A stretch of 64,000 bases of DNA from Candidatus Lloydbacteria bacterium RIFCSPHIGHO2_02_FULL_50_18 (GCA_001821395.1 MHLM01000012.1:64001-128000); one strand, 5' to 3'; counted from the stretch's first letter, positions 21,181 to 57,712 are shown. A program made the numbers and translations. Notes: generated by a model not told the origin, from the sequence alone.

Positions 21181-21411
21181 CTACTTGGCCTTTAATTCAA
21201 GATGTTTGCTTGCCTTCATGCAGCGCGTGCAGATCTTGATGCGTCCCCCTGAAAGTCCAGATGCGGTCTTCGCGAGCGCGACCCATTGCAGATTCGGATA
21301 TTTACGGCGGTCACCGCTTGGGTTGAACTTGGTCGCACGGATACGGTTCGAATAGCCCCCTGCCATTTTGGAGCCCTTGTCGCAAAGTTTACATACATTT
21401 GATGATGCCAT
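21181..21411 (-). CDS. rpmB: 50S ribosomal protein L28
   Basis: MASSNVCKLCDKG...PNLQ...KICTRCMK pattern; start at internal Met of ORF 21181..21474. Confidence 0.7.
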   Translation of the reverse strand: MASSNVCKLCDKGSKMAGGYSNRIRATKFNPSGDRRKYPNLQWVALAKTASGLSGGRIKICTRCMKASKHLELKAK

Positions 21412-21487
21412 ATGGTTTTTCCCTCCCCGCACATTACTTTCGTGCTTAGAGTTTGGTGACCGCCATGCTATCATGGGAGCTAATCAC

Positions 21488-22108
21488 ATGCAAGACGTCG
21501 ACCTCATCCAGACTATTTTTTCTATAGCGATCCTTATTTTTTCCGTCGTTGCGCACGAAGTGTCTCACGGCTATATGGCTCAATACCTCGGAGATCCAAC
21601 CGCACGGCTGGCGGGTCGACTAACCATGAACCCACTGCGGCATATCGACCCGATAGGGTCAATCTTGGTTCCGCTCATCACACTCTTGATTCCACCCCAT
21701 TTCGTTTTTGGATGGGCGAAGCCGGTACCCTATAATCCATACAATCTCCGTGATCAAAAATGGGGGGATTCCAAGGTCGCACTCGCCGGGCCGCTCACGA
21801 ACCTCGCTATCGCCTTTATTTTTGGACTGTTTATCCGCTTCGGAGGCGACCTCTTTTCCGGATCAATGATAACCATCATGCATCTTATTGTGTATATCAA
21901 TATCCTTCTCGCGGTGTTCAATCTCGTTCCGATCCCGCCGTTTGATGGTTCAAAAGTGGTCTTGAATGCACTACCACTGCGCCGGCGCTATATCGGCGAC
22001 TACTTACAGCGCTATTCGCTCCTACTGCTCGTCATTTTTGCATTTTTCCTTTGGGGGCCATTTTTGCAGCTTATTGATCTGATTTACTCACTATTCGTCG
22101 GTCTTTGA
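21488..22108 (+). CDS. M50 family (site-2 protease-like) membrane zinc metalloprotease
   Basis: HEVSHG HExxH motif and NLVPIPPFDGSKV motif; TM-rich. Confidence 0.7.
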   Translation: MQDVDLIQTIFSIAILIFSVVAHEVSHGYMAQYLGDPTARLAGRLTMNPLRHIDPIGSILVPLITLLIPPHFVFGWAKPVPYNPYNLRDQKWGDSKVALAGPLTNLAIAFIFGLFIRFGGDLFSGSMITIMHLIVYINILLAVFNLVPIPPFDGSKVVLNALPLRRRYIGDYLQRYSLLLLVIFAFFLWGPFLQLIDLIYSLFVGL

Positions 22109-22250
22109 TCGAATTCGGGCGCTTAAATGCTCGACCTCCTCACGAAAGGTTGCACTTTTCCACCTCTTATAGTAGATTACCGCTACCTAGCCGTACTCCA
22201 TAAGCGCGTGCGATCAGGATCACAAATTTCATTTATCGAATATTTAAGTT

Positions 22251-22667
22251 ATGCCAACGATCAACCAACTCGTAAAAAGCAGCAGAAAGCAGGTCGCCCA
22301 AAAATCGAAGGCGATTGCGATGGGTCGCGGTTTCAACTCGATCCAGAATCGACCGATCTTTTACAATTCCCCGTTTAAGCGTGGTGTTTGTACGAAGGTG
22401 ACGACCATGACTCCCCGCAAGCCGAACTCCGCTATCCGAAAGATCGCACGTGTACGCCTCACGAATGGCATGGAGGTCACTGCCTACATCCCGGGAATCG
22501 GACACAAGCTCCAGGAGCACTCAGTGGTCATCGTGCGCGGCGGCCGCGTGAAGGACCTTGGTCTTCGCTATCATATCGTTCGCGGACGACTCGATGCTAC
22601 CGGTGTGGACAAGCGCCAGCAGGGCCGCTCGTTGTACGGTGCAAAGCGTGCAGAGGTGAAGAAGTAG
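22251..22667 (+). CDS. rpsL: 30S ribosomal protein S12
   Basis: MPTINQLVK...KRGVCTKV...PNSAIRK...VRGGRVKDL; long Firmicutes-type form. Confidence 0.95.
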
Positions 22668-22751
22668 TAGTATTCAAGTCTTTACAGAAACTAATATCGC
22701 ACTGGAGTACCGACGACTTGCGGGAAAGACCAGTCGAACAAATAAAACAAT

Positions 22752-23222
22752 ATGCGCGGACCAGTAAAGAATCGTAATATCCGAAAGCCGGATGCAAAGT
22801 ATCATTCAGTAGAAGTTTCGACACTCATCAACTACGTGATGTGGGAAGGAAAAAAGACCATCGCAACGACGGTCGTTTATGATGCACTTGAGCTCATCAA
22901 AACTCAGCTAAAAGTAGAGGACCCTATCGAAGTCTACAAGGAAGCACTGCGCAACGCCGGACCGATCATGGAAATTCGTTCACGCCGCGTCGGTGGCGCC
23001 AATTATCAGGTTCCCCGTGAGGTCCGACCCGAGCGCCGCATCTTCCTCGCGCTGCGCTGGATCATCGATGCCGCTCGCTCAAAGAAGGGAGCCGGAATGG
23101 CCAAGAAGCTTGCCGATGAGATCATCTCCGCTTCAAAGAACGAGGGTGAAGCTATCAAGAAACGTGAGAATGTGCACAAGATGGCGGAAGCGAACAAAGC
23201 CTTCGCGCACTTCGCCTGGTAA
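22752..23222 (+). CDS. rpsG: 30S ribosomal protein S7
   Basis: S7 family throughout; 156 aa. Confidence 0.95.
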   Translation: MRGPVKNRNIRKPDAKYHSVEVSTLINYVMWEGKKTIATTVVYDALELIKTQLKVEDPIEVYKEALRNAGPIMEIRSRRVGGANYQVPREVRPERRIFLALRWIIDAARSKKGAGMAKKLADEIISASKNEGEAIKKRENVHKMAEANKAFAHFAW

Positions 23223-48971: not shown

Positions 48972-49583
48972 ATGAACGTCCCAACAATAAAAGAAAAGAT
49001 AAAGTCCGCATATCCAAAGCTGAAAGAGAAGCATGGATATAAGAACGTCATGCAGGCACCTAAGGTGGAGAAGGTCATCATTTCCGTGGGCACCGGTAAG
49101 ATGTCCCGCAATGACAAGAAGAAGAATGAGTTCGTCGCGAGCCGGCTTGGTATGATCACCGGACAGAAGGCGTCTGCACGAAAGGCAAAACAATCGATCG
49201 CTTCGTTCAAGCTTCGTGAGGGTGATGTCATCGGACAGATGGTCACGATGCGCGGGAGCAAAATGATGGGTTTCCTCGACAAGCTTGTGAACGTGGCTAT
49301 CCCGCGTACGCGCGACTTCCGAGGATTCCGTGCCGCCTCGATCGATGCAATGGGGAATTTCACCCTTGGTATCAAGGAGCACACGATCTTCCCTGAGACT
49401 GCAGATGAAGACCTGAAAGACGTCTTCAGCCTCGCACTCACTGTCGTTCTTTCAACGAGGAACAAGGAGGAGTCCATTGATTTCTTGGAGCACCTTGGTT
49501 TCCCGTTCCGCGAAACTGCGAACGAGGGAAAGAAAAAGAAAGAGAAGAAGGTTGACGCCCCAAGTAAGAAGTGGAAGAAGTAA
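48972..49583 (+). CDS. rplE: 50S ribosomal protein L5 with Lys-rich C-terminal tail
   Basis: L5 family core; C-terminal EGKKKKEKKVDAPSKKWKK. Confidence 0.9.
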   Translation: MNVPTIKEKIKSAYPKLKEKHGYKNVMQAPKVEKVIISVGTGKMSRNDKKKNEFVASRLGMITGQKASARKAKQSIASFKLREGDVIGQMVTMRGSKMMGFLDKLVNVAIPRTRDFRGFRAASIDAMGNFTLGIKEHTIFPETADEDLKDVFSLALTVVLSTRNKEESIDFLEHLGFPFRETANEGKKKKEKKVDAPSKKWKK

Positions 49584-49760: not shown

Positions 49761-49837
49761 CGAGCGGGGATCCGAAAAGACTTATTGTCTTCGCCCAAGA
49801 GGATCGGAGTTCGCGTTTGAAATACAAAACCCGCTCA

Positions 49838-49868
49838 TTTGAGCGGGTTTTGTTCTTTTGAGAATAAG
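49838..49868. terminator. palindromic rho-independent terminator (near-identical hairpin to 41165..41197)
   Basis: caaaacccgctcatttgagcgggttttgttc. Confidence 0.7.
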
Positions 49869-49939: not shown

Positions 49940-50308
49940 ATGCAGATCCGCTTTCGGGTTCGCGAACTCGCTTTGGCAATTCGGGAATTTCTCGTCGGTG
50001 TCTTTGTCTTCTTCCGGCGGTCAGTGAAAAGAAGGGATGAAGTACGATATTGCTTCATGTGCCAAGAGTACGGCCATCCGCTTACTAAAGTATCGTTCAT
50101 GATCCGCACAGAAGCGCGGAGGGGGGCAAAGAAGGAGGCGCCATTCTCGGTCATGGAACTCCACGTGTGCAGTATGCATCATCCTGACAAGGACGTCGTC
50201 GGGGCAGACCTGTCCGAGGAAACACGATCATTTCTTCGAAACAATGATGCTGCCGCAGCGTGTGTCTACTATTACCATGATCCCGATCATGTTTTCCGCC
50301 TCGGATAA
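49940..50308 (+). CDS. hypothetical protein
   Basis: 122 aa; its 3' end plus terminator is duplicated at 51215..51288. Confidence 0.4.
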   Translation: MQIRFRVRELALAIREFLVGVFVFFRRSVKRRDEVRYCFMCQEYGHPLTKVSFMIRTEARRGAKKEAPFSVMELHVCSMHHPDKDVVGADLSEETRSFLRNNDAAAACVYYYHDPDHVFRLG

Positions 50309-50373
50309 GAGGTGGTTTTTTTATACTCCGTACGTTATCCAAAGGTAATTGGACAAAGTAGCAAAAATGCAAT

Positions 50374-51195
50374 ATGGTCAGTACGGAAAAGCTAGCCCCG
50401 GGCTCCATCGTGGGAATATTCTTTGAGAAGGAACAGTCCATGCAAACAGATAAGACAGACTCGGCTTCTGCAACGCCGGAACAACTCGCGATGCTTACTG
50501 GCGAGTTCGCTCTGGCTCTGGCTAAGGCAAAGCCATCCGCCGCTCTCATGCAGCATCTGCTCCGAAGCAGGGTGGCAACACGGAAGATGATCATCGCGGC
50601 CCTATCGACGCAGGGAAGAATCAGTCACACGATTGATCCTCGCCTCGTGCAGTGTCAAAAGCTATGGGAGAAACTCGGAGTGGTGCTCGACTGCATGGAC
50701 AATCTTGTCATGCCGGAAATCCCATCCGGTTGGCGCGGTATCGCCATCATCCCACCACTCACAAATGAAGCACTCCTCGCTCTTTGCAAAAAGCACTTTC
50801 CGATATGGTCGAAACGCGATGGCCTCGACAATATCTTGAGAGAACAAAATCGACCACGATGCACCTACGTCGTCGTCCATCGTGGTGGTATGGAGCCGGA
50901 TAAAGAGCATCGTAATAAGAGTCATGATGATGCGGTCAATGAAGGTTTGTATTTTTTGACGCTGAAGGAGCGTATCTGCATCGAGCTTCTTCATTTCATA
51001 AAAACAGGCAAGCATTTTGATGTTAAGGGGACCATGACAGTCACATCCTCGCTGACGATGGGTGGCGATGCGTTTAATGTGTATTGGAGTTCGCATATTC
51101 AGACGTTCATTGTGGATGGTTGCCGTACGGTGACTTCGTACTCGACGAATGGGCTTCGTCAGGCCGTTTTCTTTGGATTGAAGCCTTACCGTTGA
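50374..51195 (+). CDS. hypothetical protein (possible paralog of 43018..43866)
   Basis: 273 aa; shared ..VVHRGG.EPD.. motif. Confidence 0.5.
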   Translation: MVSTEKLAPGSIVGIFFEKEQSMQTDKTDSASATPEQLAMLTGEFALALAKAKPSAALMQHLLRSRVATRKMIIAALSTQGRISHTIDPRLVQCQKLWEKLGVVLDCMDNLVMPEIPSGWRGIAIIPPLTNEALLALCKKHFPIWSKRDGLDNILREQNRPRCTYVVVHRGGMEPDKEHRNKSHDDAVNEGLYFLTLKERICIELLHFIKTGKHFDVKGTMTVTSSLTMGGDAFNVYWSSHIQTFIVDGCRTVTSYSTNGLRQAVFFGLKPYR

Positions 51196-51214
51196 TTGCT
51201 GAGCCGACACTTGT

Positions 51215-51288
51215 GCCGCAGCGTGTGTCTACTATTATCATGATCCCGATCATGTTTTCCGCCTCGGTTAAGAGGCGGTTTTTTTATA
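51215..51288 (+). repeat. non-coding duplicate (~96% identical) of 50252..50330 (3' end of ORF 49940 + terminator)
   Basis: gccgcagcgtgtgtctactatta(c/t)catgatcccgatcatgttttccgcctcgg(a/t)taagagg(t/c)ggttttttta; no start codon in copy 2. Confidence 0.75.
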
Positions 51289-51317
51289 AGACAAATTTTT
51301 GACTTTCCTGAAAGTTA

Positions 51318-52367
51318 ATGTATGGTGAGCACTGGTTTTGTACTTTTATATCTAACCTGAGGAAAGACATGGACATTAATACGTCTGACCCCGGTGACAA
51401 TGGACGACGGGGTATCGATAGGGGTTTGAGCGACAGGCGCGAGTATGACCTTGCCAGGACCCTCATTGGAACGTTGCTGTTCGTTAAGTTATATCGAGCT
51501 GCAGGCGCTCTCAAGTTCCTGAAGGCGCTCAAGGTTCTTGGTCCTCTCATGATGGTGGTCTCCGGAATTTTCACGGGAGAGATCTATTCTCTCGTCATGA
51601 AAACCTCCCTTGTTGTGGGGCTGCTATTTTCTCTTGCGGTGCATGAGCTCGGTCACTATGTTGCGACGAAGCGATGCGGCCTCCGCGCGGCGTGGTGGCT
51701 CTTCATTCCATTCGTCGGAGCGTGGATGGAAGCGCCGGATTTTCGTTCCCGCAATGACGAGGCGTGCATCGCTTTTGGTGGTCCTTTCATCGGAGGGATA
51801 TTTTCTCTGATATTGTTCTGTGCATGGTTGGTACTACCGCTGTCCAATGAATGGGGAAATATTCTCTTCACCATAGCTTTCCTTTCGACGATGTTGAATC
51901 TCTTCAATATGATCCCGCTTTCGCCGCTTGATGGCGGAAGGATCACCGAAGGGGTGAGTATCTGGTTTCGCGTCGCAGGGTTCGTTGTATTGATCACGCT
52001 TTCTCTCTATACCGCTCAAGCATCGATGGCTCTTGTGTGGTTGCTGGTGATGAGTGAAGTTCGGATGTCCGCACGATTGAGGTTTGTCACGGCGGCGCTC
52101 ATGCTGATCCTTATGGCGGTACTCATTATACTGGGGTATCACGGGCCTTCCGCTCTTGAAGATTGGTGCTATTTTGCGGTCGGCGTATGGCTGCTCTCCG
52201 CTTTTTATAAGCGTTGGAAGAATCCGCCCCCTCGGCATGATCATCGCAATGTCAGATTGACTCCAGCGGAGCGAAAAAAATGGAAACGTTCGTACTGTGG
52301 GCTCCTTCTTTTCCTCATCGTATTGTTTGCCGCATTTTTCCCTCACATGAGCAAACTTGCTTTTTGA
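51318..52367 (+). CDS. M50-like membrane zinc metalloprotease
   Basis: AVHELGHYVA HExxH and NLFNMIPLSPLDGG motifs; multi-TM; terminator 52371..52400. Confidence 0.65.
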   Translation: MYGEHWFCTFISNLRKDMDINTSDPGDNGRRGIDRGLSDRREYDLARTLIGTLLFVKLYRAAGALKFLKALKVLGPLMMVVSGIFTGEIYSLVMKTSLVVGLLFSLAVHELGHYVATKRCGLRAAWWLFIPFVGAWMEAPDFRSRNDEACIAFGGPFIGGIFSLILFCAWLVLPLSNEWGNILFTIAFLSTMLNLFNMIPLSPLDGGRITEGVSIWFRVAGFVVLITLSLYTAQASMALVWLLVMSEVRMSARLRFVTAALMLILMAVLIILGYHGPSALEDWCYFAVGVWLLSAFYKRWKNPPPRHDHRNVRLTPAERKKWKRSYCGLLLFLIVLFAAFFPHMSKLAF

Positions 52368-52474
52368 GTTGAATAACTCGCCGATAATCTCGGCGAGTTT
52401 TTTGTGCATTGTTGAATTGCATACTGTTGAGAGCAGTACTATACTTTATGTACATTAATATATATCCTCTCGTC

Positions 52475-55219
52475 ATGTCCTCAACAAAAAGGTTTTTTTC
52501 ACTGTGCATGTTTGGCATATTCCTCCTTCCCTCACTCGCCGCTGCTGACACCACCATCTCCTCCAACATCACCACGAATCAAACCTGGACCACGGCAAGC
52601 AGTACATACATCGTCACCACCGGTATTGCGATCAACGCAGGTGTCACCCTCACCATCAACCCCGGAGTGATCGTGAAGTTCAGCGGGATCATGTCCGGCA
52701 TCACCGTGAATGGGACGTTAAACGCCCAAGGAACCGCACTTGCACCGATATACTTCACCTCATACAAAGATGACACCGTGAATGGTGATACGAATGGCGA
52801 TGCGACCTCAACAACCCCAGCCGGGGGCGACTGGTTTTGGTTCTCCATTCCCGCGGGCGGAGCAGCAACGATCGACAACGCGATCATCCGCTATGGCGGC
52901 AGTTTCAATACTGCGCTGTTCTATAATAACGGAGGTAACCTCACCCTTGCGAACTCCGAAGTCGCATCCAGTTCCAAGTATGGCATCTGGACATATTCCG
53001 GCATATCAACTATCGCTTCTTCCACCATCGATCACAACGCGAGCTACGGTATCTATCATACGGGAGGCACCACTACCGTTGCCACGAGTACGATCCGCGA
53101 TCACAGCACCTATGGCTTCTCCACCCAGAGCGGAACTGGAAATCTCATCCTCACCAACAATATCTTTTCCGGTAATCTTCAAGGTGGAGGACTGGTGAAC
53201 TTGGCCGACAGTGCAAACGTGACCCATACGAACAACAGTGCAACGGGGCAAGGAAAGGGTGGCATGGTCATCTATGGTTCTCCCAATAAGGCACAGACAT
53301 GGGGAGCAGACCCGCTCTTCCCGTATATTATCTCAACGACAACAGGGTCGGTCACCGTGAGTACGTATGCCATCACCCTCAATCCCGGTGCGATCATCAA
53401 ATTTGAAGGAACAACCGCAGGGTTTGCGGGCAATTCAGGCACCTTCACTGCCGCGGGAACTACACAATCTCCCGTATATTTCACCTCCATCAAGGACGAC
53501 ACCGTGGGTGGCGACACCAATGGGAATGGCACGGGTACCACTCCATCTGCGGGGGATTGGGATGGTCTCATGTCCCAGAACTATAGCAATCTCACGTTGA
53601 ACAATACCGTGATCCGCTACGGTGGCTCAAAGATGCTCTATGCCAACGGTGTGAACAGCGTCATCAACCTATTCAACTCAGAAGTTGCCAGCAGTTCAAG
53701 TGCGGGAATCTATAGTGATGCAGGAACAGTGAATGCCACCGGTACGAGCATTCACGACAATCGCTACGGCTATTATCACGGCAATGTCCAAGGCAATAGC
53801 ATTGCCCACATTGCCAATGCCGGCAACACCATCTATCGCAATAGCACCTATGGTATTTATAACAATGGAACCGCCCTCGTGAATGCCGAGCAGGTATACT
53901 GGCCGGCGACAACAACGGGAGCGACGATGAATGGGCCGTATAGTACAAGCACCAACCCAGGGGGGCATGGAGATGCTGTGCTCCCCACATACATCGACTT
54001 TGATCCTTGGCTCTCTACCGTGTCAGGAAATATCGCAACGAATACCACGTGGACTGCTTCGAGTACATATGTCATTGATGGAACGCTCACGGTGAATGCG
54101 GGGACGACACTCACGATTCCTGCAGCTACGGTGGTGAAGTTTGCCAATGCAACCTCAAAGATCAGCGTCTCGGGGAGCTTGGTTGCAGATTCTGCAGCGT
54201 CTTCCTCACGAATATATTTCACGTCAATCAAGGATGATGCGGTGGGAGGGGATACCAATGGAGATGGGGGTGCGACTTCACCTGCTGCGGGAGATTGGGA
54301 TGGGATCAAAGTGAATGCGGGAGGCGTTGCAACACTGAACTTCATTTCTGCTCGCTATGGAGGAAGTGGTGGGCCCATGCTTTGGAACTATGCAGGAACG
54401 TTGGATCTTAATAATTCAGAAATTGCGAGCAGTAGTAATACGGGAATCTTCCATTCCTCGGGTGCCACGCAATTAATAGTTCGAGCTTGTGATATTCACA
54501 ACAATAATTATGGCATATTTGTTGACGACAGCTCGCTTGTGACAATCGGCAGCAACAATATTCATGGCAATGTTGTGGGAGTAAATGATAATACTTTTTT
54601 TGGGATTGATATTAGATATAACTATTGGGGTGATGCAAGTGGCCCATATAATTCTGTCTATCACCCGACTGGGACCGGTGATACCATCGTTGAGAATGCG
54701 TTTACGCTTGTTTCTCCATGGTTAGACAGGGTACATTATTTGTATTTCTTAAACCACAATTTGGTTACTTCGATTACCAGTGGAGTATTGGATTGGAATT
54801 GGTTCAACGGCACATCTACTTATGCGACGGCTTGGTATGCAGGAGTTAACACATGGAACACATATGGAAATTCGGTTGGAGGAGTTACTTTTGCAACAAG
54901 TACCACGGCAACATCCTCAGCTGATTTACTCGTTTTGGACATGGCTAGCTCATCTAGTGATTTATTCTATGCCATCTACGACCCCTTTGTTACTCCTACG
55001 GAAATTAAATTTAACCCTTATTATATGAACACTGCAACTGCTAATATAAGGCAAATGACCACAACTCATGAACTTGGTCATGCCCTAGGGCTTTGGCACA
55101 GTTATATAAACAACATCATGATTGCATCCCCAGCTTCAACTACTGGTCAGGTTTCACTGGGCACTCAAGATATGTTGGATTACGATTATTGTTGGGTGAG
55201 TCATAATTGTGGGATATAA
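52475..55219 (+). CDS. large secreted protein: signal peptide, three ~270-aa parallel beta-helix-like super-repeats, C-terminal metzincin (HELGHALGLWH) protease domain
   Basis: Repeated YFTS(I/Y)KDD.V.GDTNG..G.T.PAGDW and I(R/I)YGGS...NSE(V/I)ASSS blocks; HEXXHXXGXXH at residues ~880; start at MSSTKRFFSLCMFGIFLLPSLAAA within ORF 52409. Confidence 0.7.
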   Translation: MSSTKRFFSLCMFGIFLLPSLAAADTTISSNITTNQTWTTASSTYIVTTGIAINAGVTLTINPGVIVKFSGIMSGITVNGTLNAQGTALAPIYFTSYKDDTVNGDTNGDATSTTPAGGDWFWFSIPAGGAATIDNAIIRYGGSFNTALFYNNGGNLTLANSEVASSSKYGIWTYSGISTIASSTIDHNASYGIYHTGGTTTVATSTIRDHSTYGFSTQSGTGNLILTNNIFSGNLQGGGLVNLADSANVTHTNNSATGQGKGGMVIYGSPNKAQTWGADPLFPYIISTTTGSVTVSTYAITLNPGAIIKFEGTTAGFAGNSGTFTAAGTTQSPVYFTSIKDDTVGGDTNGNGTGTTPSAGDWDGLMSQNYSNLTLNNTVIRYGGSKMLYANGVNSVINLFNSEVASSSSAGIYSDAGTVNATGTSIHDNRYGYYHGNVQGNSIAHIANAGNTIYRNSTYGIYNNGTALVNAEQVYWPATTTGATMNGPYSTSTNPGGHGDAVLPTYIDFDPWLSTVSGNIATNTTWTASSTYVIDGTLTVNAGTTLTIPAATVVKFANATSKISVSGSLVADSAASSSRIYFTSIKDDAVGGDTNGDGGATSPAAGDWDGIKVNAGGVATLNFISARYGGSGGPMLWNYAGTLDLNNSEIASSSNTGIFHSSGATQLIVRACDIHNNNYGIFVDDSSLVTIGSNNIHGNVVGVNDNTFFGIDIRYNYWGDASGPYNSVYHPTGTGDTIVENAFTLVSPWLDRVHYLYFLNHNLVTSITSGVLDWNWFNGTSTYATAWYAGVNTWNTYGNSVGGVTFATSTTATSSADLLVLDMASSSSDLFYAIYDPFVTPTEIKFNPYYMNTATANIRQMTTTHELGHALGLWHSYINNIMIASPASTTGQVSLGTQDMLDYDYCWVSHNCGI

Positions 55220-55230
55220 CATTGAAAACC

Positions 55231-55959
55231 ATGAACAAAGATATAAAAGATATAATAATCCTTCTTACTGCACTCCTGCTCTCTGCCATCGTCATTGCTG
55301 GAATATATTACAGAGCAAAAAGAATACCCGAAGAAACTCCAGGAACCTTGAAAAGATATCAGCTCCAAGGAACACCTGATCATCCGGCGATGTTTTATCC
55401 TACCGATCTGACTAAAGATATAAACCTATTGGGCTCATCTCATGATGTTTTCATAGGAAAAGTCATTTCTCAAACTGGTGACAAAGAAACTCAGATTGGA
55501 CCACGCACACAATATTCGGTGGAAGTTATTGATAATATTAAGGGTAAGTTAAAAGATATTGTAACCATTGACATGCTGGGTGGTTATGACAAAGATGGCA
55601 AGTTGGTAGTAATCGAAGAAAATGATTCAACTGATTTTCTCCTTAAACCAGGCTCAACTTACCTCTTTGCTACCCGTTATAACGAAGAAGAGGATTGGTA
55701 TACTCTAATTTCTCACCCGAATGCTCGAAAAATTATAAGTACAGATAACACAAAAAATGAAGCCGCTCTCATGGCTCTCATCGACCAAGACGAAAAGGTA
55801 AAATCCTTTGAATCCGCATACGCCCATGAAGTTCTCCTCGACGCCGACATCGCCCACGGAAATACTCGTAACTCCTTCCAGTCTCTCGCACCAGCGGAAA
55901 AAGCCGCCGCCCAATCCCGCGCTGATGCGGCAAGAGCCTTGCTTGAGGCAATGCAGTAA
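55231..55959 (+). CDS. N-terminally membrane-anchored protein, partner of the beta-helix/metzincin gene
   Basis: MNKDIKDIIILLTALLLSAIVIAGIYY TM anchor then soluble ~200-aa domain; start overlaps upstream gene stop; 5' region duplicated at 56196. Confidence 0.5.
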   Translation: MNKDIKDIIILLTALLLSAIVIAGIYYRAKRIPEETPGTLKRYQLQGTPDHPAMFYPTDLTKDINLLGSSHDVFIGKVISQTGDKETQIGPRTQYSVEVIDNIKGKLKDIVTIDMLGGYDKDGKLVVIEENDSTDFLLKPGSTYLFATRYNEEEDWYTLISHPNARKIISTDNTKNEAALMALIDQDEKVKSFESAYAHEVLLDADIAHGNTRNSFQSLAPAEKAAAQSRADAARALLEAMQ

Positions 55960-56002
55960 GATGCTTCTGCGGGGGTATACTTATTTGTGAACACAACGGC
56001 TC

Positions 56003-56185
56003 ATGAACAAAAAAATACTAAAATACACACTTGTCATCTTTGGGATATTCCTGCTCGGAGGCGTCGCGTTGTCGATCCATTTGTTCATCCAAAGTAAATT
56101 TGGTGTTTACGCTCCTCTAGATCGCGGATTTCCGGTAAGGACATTCCATCCAACGGGTATTAGTATTGATCAACCCAGCATTTGA
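56003..56185 (+). CDS. small single-TM protein (possibly degenerate copy of same family)
   Basis: MNKKILKYTLVIFGIFLLGGVALSI N-terminus echoes MNKDIKDIIILL... Confidence 0.3.
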   Translation: MNKKILKYTLVIFGIFLLGGVALSIHLFIQSKFGVYAPLDRGFPVRTFHPTGISIDQPSI

Positions 56186-56195
56186 ATGGATACCT

Positions 56196-56380
56196 ATCAT
56201 AATTGTGGGATATAACATTGAAAACTATGAACAAAGACATAAAAGATATAATGATTCTTCTTATTGCACTTCTACTCTCCATCGTCGTCATTGCTGGAAT
56301 ATATTACGGAATAAAAAGTACTCAAGGAACTGTAGTTTCAACATATTCTCATCAGGGAACGCCTGAAAATCCGGCAATGT
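56196..56380 (+). repeat. ~190-bp duplicate (~85% identical) of 55203..55400 (junction: ...HNCGI stop + 5' part of membrane-anchor gene), encoding a truncated 47-aa copy
   Basis: cataattgtgggatataacattgaaaac(c/t)atgaacaaaga(t/c)ataaaagatataat... shared. Confidence 0.7.
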
Positions 56381-56897
56381 AGAATTTCATAGAAAACAAT
56401 AATTATGGAAGCTCTAAAAAATGAATTAAAGAAAACAATGGTCGTATGGAGAGATGCGTTAATCTGAGAAAAAAGATTTGCTAATCTGAAAAAGCTATTC
56501 CTCGTTATTTTGGGTGTGGCTGTGTTTATCATTATCTTTCCGATGCCAACGAGGTGCAGGATAGAAAATCATGGAGCATATAGGCCGGCTAACGATTTAG
56601 TAATTGGTGCATACGTGGTTCGTGATTGTTACCCACCAAACCGTGCTGAATTTTGGCAGAACCCACAATTGAGTTTTGAATTTCGCTGGTTATTTGTTCC
56701 CACGTTAGACAGTATAACTGGTCATCGAGGTGTCAGTGTAATAAATATCCATCTATAAGGTAATCCCACATTCGCGTAAGCAATAAAAACTGCTACAAGG
56801 CGGGTCTTTGTTTTTTGTCTGGGCTATTCCTCGCGAGCACTAAGGTGTTCGCATATTGCTGGTCTGCGATAATCTAGTCTTATATAATAGACTCATA

Positions 56898-57320
56898 ATG
56901 AAACAAAATATACTCCTCGCGCTTACTGTTGCGGGCTTACTTTTCTCGGGTTATCTCGGCGGACTGAAGTTGTTTTCCGACACGTGTGCATTTAACGAGA
57001 CATGCGCGACATTTTTAGGGTACCCGACGTGTTATTACGGCTTTGCGATGTACCTCTTGATCTTTGTCCTTCTTCTCGCGTCGCGTTTCGGGAAGATGGG
57101 CGTTTCCCGCGCTCGGTACGGAGTAGCCGGTATCTCTTTTGCGGGCATTCTTTTTTCCGGATATTACAGTTTCCGCGAGTTATCAACTCTTCTTCGTGGG
57201 GATATTTCCGATTTTTTGCTCGGATTGCCGACCTGCGCATACGGATTCATCATGTATGTGGCTATTTTGGGCTTTGCGTTGTCATCGATACGAGAAATTC
57301 AAAAGAAGAAGTTGAACTAG
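56898..57320 (+). CDS. 4-TM membrane protein with internal duplication (G.PTC.YGF.MY twice)
   Basis: LGYPTCYYGFAMYLLIF and LGLPTCAYGFIMYVAIL halves; start at MKQNILLALT within ORF 56856. Confidence 0.45.
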   Translation: MKQNILLALTVAGLLFSGYLGGLKLFSDTCAFNETCATFLGYPTCYYGFAMYLLIFVLLLASRFGKMGVSRARYGVAGISFAGILFSGYYSFRELSTLLRGDISDFLLGLPTCAYGFIMYVAILGFALSSIREIQKKKLN

Positions 57321-57369: not shown

Positions 57370-57398
57370 TTGACAGTCGTTGAGCCATTTGTTAGTAT
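57370..57398 (+). promoter_or_regulatory. sigma70-like promoter TTGACA-17-TAGTAT upstream of rpsZ
   Basis: ttgacagtcgttgagccatttgttagtat. Confidence 0.5.
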
Positions 57399-57529: not shown

Positions 57530-57712
57530 ATGGCAAAAAAATCAACAATTGCACGACAACTCACCCCGAAATTTCCGGGTCGAGCAGTCAATCGCTGTTT
57601 TAAGTGCGGGCGAAAACGCGGCTATATGAGAGCTTTCGATCTCTGCCGTATCTGTTTTCGTGAATTAGCAAACGAGGGAAAGGTCCCCGGAATAAAGAAA
57701 TCATCATGGTAA
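57530..57712 (+). CDS. rpsZ: 30S ribosomal protein S14 type Z (zinc-binding)
   Basis: [10 protein letters not shown]...[34 protein letters not shown]; 60 aa. Confidence 0.85.

Follow-up and report, generated by a model that had tools for sequence, protein, structure and literature searches.

A matrixin-like metzincin on a triple beta-helix scaffold and a membrane-anchored partner of predicted TIMP fold, encoded side by side within the spc operon of a Candidatus Lloydbacteria genome

A bacterial metzincin encoded next to a membrane-anchored protein resembling the tissue inhibitors of metalloproteinases (TIMPs) has been described in Listeria monocytogenes, where LMRG_00714 (Tim) comes directly after the secreted HEXXHXXGXXH metzincin LMRG_00713 (Mtz) (Boichis et al. 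2021, PMC8235301). According to the parts of that report considered here, Tim is a lipoprotein whose TIMP-like fold was predicted by Phyre2 with 60% confidence, or with more than 90% once trimmed; a cut made in Tim by Mtz near aa 49-55 sets the TIMP-like part free; and co-expression of Mtz and Tim sensitizes cells to lysins and cell-wall agents, phenotypes that need active Mtz. The same parts mention similar pairs on mobile elements in other Firmicutes or Gram-positive bacteria, and state that the authors found no earlier record of TIMP-like bacterial proteins. The present analysis concerns 64,000 nucleotides of DNA from Candidatus Lloydbacteria bacterium RIFCSPHIGHO2_02_FULL_50_18 (GCA_001821395.1, MHLM01000012.1:64001-128000; the window), a groundwater organism of the candidate phyla radiation (CPR)/Parcubacteria lineage. 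Between the ribosomal protein genes rplE and rpsZ, this window carries an island whose functional core consists of two genes that form a module of Mtz-Tim type: a large gene (the big gene) encoding a secreted beta-helix protein that ends in a matrixin-like metzincin domain, and a downstream gene encoding a membrane-anchored protein (the partner) with a predicted TIMP/NTR fold. An earlier inspection of the sequence (the original prediction) had proposed a surface protease system at this site that also included an upstream M50 membrane protease. Coordinates are collected in Table 1.

The window pair resembles Mtz-Tim in that a secreted metzincin is followed on the same strand by a membrane-anchored protein of TIMP-like predicted fold, carried on a tether of ~50 residues. 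It differs in the 750-aa triple beta-helix extension at the N terminus of the protease, in the anchor of the partner, which is a transmembrane (TM) helix where Listeria Tim has a lipobox, and in its setting, a CPR host and the interior of the spc operon, without phage or XRE genes nearby. The same gene order is found in the Mycobacterium abscessus prophage prophiGD12-2, whose gp80 and gp79 are labelled 'metallopeptidase' and 'metalloproteinase inhibitor', overlap by 4 nt, and include a lipoprotein-type anchor on gp79; that pair is prophage-borne, its protease has a long Q/P-rich N-terminal region rather than a beta-helix, and its partner scores modestly. A further parallel is offered by Tannerella forsythia, in which potempin A, a membrane-anchored inhibitor with an oligonucleotide/oligosaccharide-binding (OB) fold, is co-transcribed with the matrix metalloproteinase (MMP)-like karilysin and protects the organism's own surface proteins; the potempins of this KLIKK-peptidase system are outer-membrane lipoproteins of 98-132 residues whose genes lie upstream of the protease (PMC9890683). 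The window pair likewise joins an MMP-like bacterial metzincin to a membrane-anchored protein with a predicted OB fold. Unlike the potempins, the window partner is encoded downstream, extends ~180 residues past its anchor, has NTR-type flanking helices in its model and belongs to a host in which no outer membrane is expected; the partner and the potempins showed no relation in sequence. In the serralysin-Inh/AprI systems (MEROPS M10B/I38), the N-terminal amine of the inhibitor coordinates zinc, in parallel to TIMP, as noted in the available parts of PMC8235301. There too the gene adjacent to a metzincin encodes its cognate inhibitor, and the window metzincin profile matches serralysins at 1e-6. 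AprI/Inh, however, folds as a periplasmic beta-barrel of eight strands and is not related to the NTR fold, and serralysins have an HExxHxxGxxHP motif, RTX repeats and type I secretion.

The C-terminal domain of the big protein contains the exact HEXXHXXGXXH motif noted in the original prediction, HELGHALGLWH, at aa 865-875 (nt 55067-55099). The extended form, HELGHALGLWHS (aa 865-876), has Ser after the third His, a hallmark of matrixins. HELGHxxGLxH is kept in 45 of 120 homologues, and the motif is also present in the 39-sequence alignment of the metzincin domain (A2). Seven residues past the third His, Met882 of an NNIM sequence is a candidate Met-turn, judged from its position; most A2 sequences have Met at this site, and almost all keep the Asn before it. 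Profile A2 matches the catalytic domain of MMP-1 (E=7e-7), the serralysin PrtC (1e-6) and myroilysin, and the match spans helix A, the sheet and the zinc site, beyond the motif. An AlphaFold (AF2) model of the domain, with a predicted local distance difference test score (pLDDT) of 87, shows five strands and three helices in the order typical of metzincins. When this model was compared with the PDB by Foldseek, the top 50 matches were all MMP catalytic domains or karilysin (probability 1.0, TM-score 0.55-0.63), with MMP-1, -3, -7, -12 and -13 among the matched folds. The tail of the domain, LGTQDMLDYDYCW (L..QD..DY..W), resembles the MMP pattern L..DD..GIQ.LYG. Profile, model and structural matches thus bear out the fusion of a beta-helix protein to a metzincin proposed originally, and the predicted fold around HELGHALGLWH corresponds to that of MMP catalytic domains. 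Pfam scores fall below the cut-offs for both Peptidase_M10 (20.0 bits versus 24) and M43 (20.5 versus 23); because of the M10 score the domain is described as matrixin-like rather than as a curated M10 member, and it represents a divergent, minimal, matrixin-like subfamily.

Set beside the animal MMPs (MEROPS M10A), the window protease shares the HExxHxxGxxHS motif, the candidate Met-turn, the tail and the predicted fold. It differs in lacking a prodomain and cysteine switch, and its catalytic domain, at ~135-160 aa, is shorter than those of MMPs. The only cysteines in the big protein are C11, C672, C906 and C912, and a PRCGxPD cysteine switch or prodomain is not present; stand-alone relatives of ~160 aa likewise pass from the signal peptide straight into the catalytic domain without a prodomain. 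The C906/C912 pair at the end of the metzincin is conserved in a subset of homologues.

The partner gene begins at an ATG (55231) that lies 11 nt after the stop codon of the big gene, is used in public gene calls and matches the MNK... starts of homologues. It had been described as a TM-anchored protein of 243 aa overlapping the big-gene stop; the anchor stands, the length is 242 aa, and the overlap is replaced by the 11-nt gap, the sole start that gives an overlap being an alternative TTG at 55207. No terminator-like site was found between the two genes. The NCBI label of the partner is hypothetical protein, and no Pfam family matched any of the 69 partner-family members aligned here (A1). 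A model derived from A1 (pLDDT 92) has a TM helix at aa 3-30, a lower-confidence linker and a domain made of an OB barrel with a short N-terminal helix and C-terminal helices, the arrangement of the N-TIMP/NTR fold. Foldseek placed TIMP-2, N-TIMP-1, agrin NtA and the PCOLCE NTR domain at the top (E from 4e-4 to 3e-3), with TM-scores of about 0.5-0.56 as normalized to N-domain targets; the TIMP/NTR fold was ranked by two comparison methods, of which Foldseek is an independent one. A link at the level of sequence was rejected: the partner profile matched nothing among PDB sequences, hhalign against TIMP-1 (with an approximate query sequence) gave a probability of 0.1, and the Pfam searches of the 69 members were negative. 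On its predicted structure, the partner is therefore a TIMP-fold protein and not a member of the TIMP family, and its likeness to the inhibitor side of the animal MMP-TIMP pair (MEROPS I35) lies in the N-TIMP/NTR fold. A single N-terminal hydrophobic segment is present in 60 of the 69 family members, most of them with the more positive flank on its N-side, and variants with three TM segments have a KKRKK-type positive loop ahead of the last one. Together these charge patterns would place the domain outside the cell.

The distribution of the two genes was followed through 16 genome and 49 metagenome loci, fetched with the partner profile, in which all open reading frames (ORFs) were scanned with profiles or single queries for the partner, metzincin, beta-helix, M50, orphan and VKOR-like proteins. 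Informative loci, defined as distinct partner genes with enough upstream DNA, numbered 52. A metzincin ORF lies no more than 1.5 kb upstream on the same strand in 46 of these, usually only 4-40 nt away, which upholds the view of the partner as cognate to the metzincin. In ~10 loci the upstream ORF is a stand-alone metzincin of ~160 aa, consisting of signal peptide and catalytic domain only; elsewhere the metzincin is joined to one to five beta-helix modules or to unrelated N-terminal regions. Because the metzincin often stands alone without a beta-helix, the conserved unit is the metzincin plus the TIMP-fold partner, and it includes neither the M50 nor the beta-helix. Distance matrices of metzincins and partners are correlated (36 pairs, Mantel r=0.42, a value reached by 0 of 2000 permutations), and the two genes are therefore inherited together. 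The partner belongs to a large family, with 1,674 cluster representatives at 50% identity at E<=1e-3 and 989 at E<=1e-10.

Relatives of the pair were also found among phage records. In a tblastn comparison of the window partner with 50,697 such records, the two best matches, both weak, were a Listeria-labelled contig and prophiGD12-2 gene 79. The Listeria contig pair scores 57.3 bits against partner profile A1 and 92.6 bits against metzincin profile A2; the mycobacterial prophage pair scores 23.5 bits (A1, gp79) and 47.4 bits (A2, gp80). The Listeria contig pair is chromosomal, couples a weak M10 protein of 164 aa with a 'cell surface protein' of 206 aa, and is found across Listeria sensu stricto. 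It was considered as the published mtz-tim locus and ruled out (L073/L075), being located near rpsB-tsf and without XRE genes. The homology shown by these profile scores covers these two pairs.

The beta-helix portion of the big gene was originally read as three super-repeats of ~270 aa in a 915-aa ORF with a signal peptide. The ORF, its signal-like N-terminal segment and the three repeats are all recovered; the protein has 914 aa, and the repeats have a period of 242-246 aa with pairwise identities of 36-43%. Their anchors fall at aa 93/335/581 (YFTSxKDD), 139/381/627 (RYGGS) and 160/401/647 (NSEVASSS), and the protein matches Pfam Beta_helix at E=9e-21. The beta-helix region matched nothing among PDB sequences, so no catalytic inference is drawn for it, and the modules are most likely a binding or spacer stalk. 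Relatives of this region carry other C-terminal domains, namely M23 peptidase, LCAT-type lipase, RHS, SH3 and FN3 (among them homologues P0028, P0036, P0037, P0083 and P0099 and loci L076 and L077), which suggests that the repeat scaffold is a modular surface mount for exchangeable enzyme domains in Paceibacteria and Chloroflexi. A lipase-ended relative is followed 5 nt downstream by an unrelated gene of 126 aa. In the one M23-ended relative examined, no partner-like gene follows, so the presence of the partner follows the metzincin rather than the stalk.

Inhibitor, chaperone and anchor had all been offered originally as roles for the partner, and its predicted TIMP/NTR fold points to the first. 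By structural modeling and by analogy with known systems, the partner is probably a cognate inhibitor, tethered to the membrane, that restrains or otherwise regulates the secreted protease, or an immunity factor for the producer. The protease would be exported through a Sec-type signal as a beta-helix stalk bearing a matrixin-like domain without a prodomain. The N-terminal helix of the partner would reside in the membrane and its TIMP/NTR domain would be held outside the cell on a tether of ~35-45 residues, where, at the cell surface, it could bind the catalytic domain of the protease encoded next to it. Inhibition of this kind would shield the envelope of the producer and has counterparts in the action of TIMPs on MMPs, of potempin A on karilysin and of AprI on AprA. 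Cleavage of the tether by the protease, as seen for Listeria Tim, is a further possibility and would supply the free N-terminus on which a TIMP-type inhibitor depends. The tether and a conserved segment just before strand A (FYPTDLTKDINLLGSSHDVFIGKV in the window; family consensus Y.ADFSDD..L.GASHNVFVGKV) fall where aa 49-55 of a Listeria homologue align, the residues near which the published Tim is reported to be cut; a cut there would put the new, free N-terminus some 10-15 residues ahead of strand A. A similar spacing separates Cys1 from strand A in TIMP-1. By this analogy, the unmasking of an inhibitory N-terminus through tether cleavage is an attractive possibility.

Several observations weigh against an inhibitory role. 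In comparison with TIMPs, the window partner lacks cysteines, and with them the Cys1 free amine, the CxC motif and the TIMP disulfides, as well as a second TIMP domain and sequence similarity; because it has neither cysteines nor a free N-terminal Cys, the zinc chelation of canonical TIMPs cannot operate here in unmodified form. Several NTR-fold proteins, such as agrin NtA and complement C345C, are not protease inhibitors. The flanks of the window partner's own TM segment are ambiguous as to topology, with a net charge of 0 on the N flank and +2 on the C flank. Finally, the available parts of the Listeria study show Tim cleaved by Mtz and make no mention of inhibition of Mtz by Tim (PMC8235301).

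That cleavage is the starting point for a different account, drawn by analogy with Mtz-Tim, in which the partner is a substrate or pro-factor: the metzincin would free the TIMP-like domain to act at another site, such as the cell wall or envelope of producing, neighboring or host cells. Both the position of the Mtz cut and the dependence of the Listeria phenotypes on active Mtz agree with such a role (PMC8235301, in the parts considered), as do the tethers of 30-60 aa on CPR partners and the alignment of their pre-strand-A segment with the Listeria segment. Release and inhibition are mutually compatible, however, and the released TIMP-like domain is without a known target; we regard this account as possible but unlikely. 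It is less likely still that the partner serves as an anchor or assembly factor that docks the protease on the surface or aids its folding while leaving the active site untouched. Such a role would suit a membrane-anchored protein co-transcribed with the protease, and some NTR-fold domains, agrin NtA among them, are binding modules rather than inhibitors. It would also suit a conserved amphipathic helix at the C terminus of the partner (aa 221-241, window 55891-55953, pLDDT >94, NSFQSL..EKAAAQSRADAA...), which is common to close CPR homologues and absent from the Listeria and mycobacterial relatives. The partner nevertheless tracks the metzincin and not the beta-helix, stand-alone metzincins having a partner where the M23-ended relative has none, and the best structural matches of its model include inhibitory N-TIMPs solved in MMP complexes.

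The M50 gene directly upstream of the big gene was correctly recognized from its HELGH and LDG motifs: its product scores 62.9 bits against Pfam PF02163 (cut-off 27.2) and matches the structure of the archaeal S2P MJ0392 (3b4r, E=6e-11). It is a second, divergent M50 paralogue in the genome; a housekeeping-type M50 is encoded at window positions 21368-22108, upstream of rpsL (22251-22667) and rpsG (22752-23222). Outside same-genome copies (L001-L003), the 349-aa island type of M50 was present in no scanned locus, and the same is true of both orphan ORFs and the VKOR-like gene of the island. Only one other M50 adjacent to a pair emerged from a scan of the loci for HExxH...LDG motifs. This is a 250-aa protein in an unrelated Patescibacteria genome (L011), encoded directly upstream of rpsL-rpsG (L011 10932-12649), with a beta-helix-metzincin and partner pair immediately upstream of it. 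Because the window has the same M50-rpsL-rpsG arrangement (21368-23222), it is assigned as the housekeeping paralogue, a type of 246-250 aa in the two genomes; the adjacency there therefore reflects the landing site of the pair. The triad of M50, beta-helix-metzincin and partner expected from the original prediction thus does not recur in the other loci scanned, and in the window a strong terminator-like hairpin (52375-52399) separates the M50 gene from the other two. Synteny, paralogue analysis and this hairpin together led to the rejection of the M50 as a component of the system; its sequence context marks it as a bystander outside the conserved unit, and its removal disposes of a false lead. 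A two-step scheme, in which the metzincin makes a site-1 cut in the tether and the M50 a site-2 cut in the TM stub, is very unlikely: the genes are adjacent in the window genome, an M50 also adjoins the pair in L011 and M50 enzymes such as RseP and SpoIVFB are well known to take part in the two-step cleavage of TM-anchored proteins, but the island-type M50 is found in no other locus, the L011 enzyme is a housekeeping paralogue, a hairpin intervenes, and the ~7-residue cytoplasmic tail of the partner leaves nothing to signal with.

To our knowledge, animals are usually credited with the invention of TIMPs and the NTR module, and the restraint of prodomain-less MMP-like proteases in bacteria is little understood. 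The pairing of a metzincin with a TIMP-like protein is already published but barely explored, having rested on one Listeria description that used low-confidence fold recognition. What the present locus adds is the triple beta-helix fusion, a TM anchor in place of a lipobox, a CPR host, insertion into the spc operon and a decayed second copy. The published picture is further extended by a high-confidence fold model of the partner and by a large family that tracks the metzincin whatever the surrounding architecture; the pairing is common in CPR bacteria, often in tandem arrays, and also occurs on beta-helix scaffolds. With a protease of 160 aa and an ectodomain of 180 aa, it offers a small system for the study of surface protease control and of the origin of MMP-TIMP regulation. 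The module may be a candidate surface-protease and self-protection system for episymbiotic bacteria, and a role in interaction with a host, as suggested originally, is possible. A broader proposal, which we consider doubtful, is that the animal MMP-TIMP pair may have a homologous rather than convergent prokaryotic counterpart: a large TIMP/NTR-fold family (at least 1,674 clusters at 50% identity) locked to minimal matrixins, in which a protease-cut tether would unmask an inhibitory N-terminus, and of which the CPR beta-helix versions would be surface weapons or feeding tools with the partner providing self-immunity. The members examined for this proposal comprise 64 CPR-dominated loci, the Listeria locus and the mycobacterial prophage.

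The decayed second copy lies downstream of the pair. The segment from 55201 to ~55398 (copy A) recurs at 56197 to ~56380 (copy B), with 89% identity over the first 122 nt followed by indels. A duplication ~1 kb downstream had been reported as the last 20 nt of the big gene plus the 5' part of the partner gene, starting at 56196; it is confirmed with slightly different limits, 19 nt of the big gene and ~52 partner codons from 56197. The fragment 56197-56382 is what remains of a second copy of the pair, otherwise deleted, and no further decayed metzincin or partner remnants were found in 56400-56850. This reading is drawn because tandem arrays of the pair occur in relatives (L006 10001-18359, L019 7331-12056 and L033 2-5200), in the order protease-partner-protease-...-partner-protease; the arrays include short metzincin fragments resembling pseudogenes or frameshifts, and indicate that the module is frequently duplicated and decaying. 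The claim of a repeatedly duplicated, decaying partner is thereby sustained as regards the second copy and withdrawn as regards a third. The small ORF at 56003-56185 had been likened to the partner at its N-terminus; it scores 0.6 bits against the partner-family profile, BLAST matched nothing to it, and its resemblance is that of a generic hydrophobic segment, so that it was rejected as a third partner copy.

Table 1. Features of the rplE-rpsZ island and its flanks (window positions; aa ranges refer to the encoded protein).
Feature	Position	Strand	Remarks
rplE (ribosomal protein L5), left flank of island	48972..49583	+	ORF list; Pfam Ribosomal_L5 on same gene in L001
Terminator-like hairpin 3' of rplE	49824..49853	+	13-bp stem then T run
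Orphan ORF, 122 aa	49940..50308	+	Matches no family; outside conserved pair
Orphan ORF, 273 aa	50374..51195	+	No family or PDB match; outside conserved pair
M50 (site-2-protease family) intramembrane metalloprotease, 349 aa	51318..52367	+	Pfam PF02163; PDB 3b4r match
Terminator-like hairpin between M50 gene and big gene	52375..52399	+	10-bp stem then TTTTT
Promoter-like site upstream of big gene	52427..52456	+	Consensus match only
Big gene, 914-aa secreted protein: signal-like N-terminus, three beta-helix super-repeats, C-terminal mini-matrixin	52475..55219	+	
Beta-helix super-repeat 1 (aa 25-268)	52547..53278	+	Pfam Beta_helix
Beta-helix super-repeat 2 (aa 269-513)	53279..54013	+	
Beta-helix super-repeat 3 (aa 514-752)	54014..54730	+	Terminates in YW...GPY...PWL cap motif
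Matrixin-like metzincin catalytic domain (aa 753-914)	54731..55216	+	HELGHALGLWHS at 55067-55102; candidate Met-turn NNIM; Cys pair C906/C912
Partner, 242 aa	55231..55959	+	N-terminal TM anchor aa ~8-27; ~35-45-aa linker; predicted TIMP/NTR-fold domain aa ~60-242; no cysteines
60-aa ORF with hydrophobic N-terminus	56003..56185	+	Unrelated to partner
Decayed duplicate: last 19 nt of big-gene copy and first ~52 partner codons	56197..56382	+	TAG end
VKOR-like small membrane protein, 140 aa	56898..57320	+	Pfam VKOR sub-threshold; gene call in L001
Promoter-like site before rpsZ, best of region	57370..57398	+	TTGACA-17-TAGTAT with TG
rpsZ (zinc-type S14), right flank of island	57530..57712	+	

The position of the island between rplE and rpsZ is as originally described. 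The window sequence is identical to a 198-kb groundwater metagenome scaffold (ENA ERZ28563803, ANAN16-1 scaffold_125). The ribosomal genes run rpsC ... rplN-rplX-rplE, then the island, then rpsZ, rpsH and rplF, with ~7.9 kb between rplE and rpsZ. Because rplE adjoins rpsN/Z in the standard bacterial spc operon, this 7.9 kb is an insertion. GC content is 0.36-0.44 across 54.5-56.5 kb, compared with ~0.47-0.53 in the flanks. With a strong terminator-like hairpin after rplE and a near-consensus promoter-like site before rpsZ, the spc operon appears to be transcriptionally split by the island. There is no tRNA gene within the window; no island ORF matched a mobile-element family in general family scans, and nothing significant was obtained for island proteins in PHROGs or PADLOC.

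Two orphan ORFs and a VKOR-like ORF, on which the original prediction was silent, also lie within the island; together with the M50 they are neighbors outside the module. The orphans, of 122 and 273 aa, matched nothing in Pfam, NCBIfam, PHROGs or PADLOC, the 273-aa ORF matched nothing in the PDB, and each is followed by a terminator-like hairpin 3' of the gene. The 122-aa protein has a CxxC...HxCxxHH pattern and might bind zinc. A direct repeat of 75 nt (96% identical) occupies 50251-50325 and 51214-51288, spaced 963 nt apart; it contains the last codons of the 122-aa ORF and the terminator-like hairpin, and its second copy lies directly 3' of the 273-aa ORF. The arrangement suggests that a gene end or terminator was duplicated and now flanks the latter on both sides. 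The VKOR-like ORF scores 24.2 bits against Pfam VKOR, below the cut-off of 27.5. This gene closes the window island; at L006, genes for DsbD_TM and thioredoxin-like proteins precede the pair (L006 8018-9925). A connection of the metzincin/partner pair with extracytoplasmic disulfide formation is possible.

The pair adjoins translation genes in four unrelated genomes, those of the window (49940-57320), L011 (7621-12649), L004 (1381-14161) and Listeria (L075 1413-6621). It lies between rplE and rpsZ in the window, before M50-rpsL-rpsG in L011, ~8 kb before infA-rpsM-rpsK-rpsD in L004 and 2.4 kb after rpsB-tsf in Listeria. This proximity could be due to chance or to a preference for highly expressed neighborhoods.

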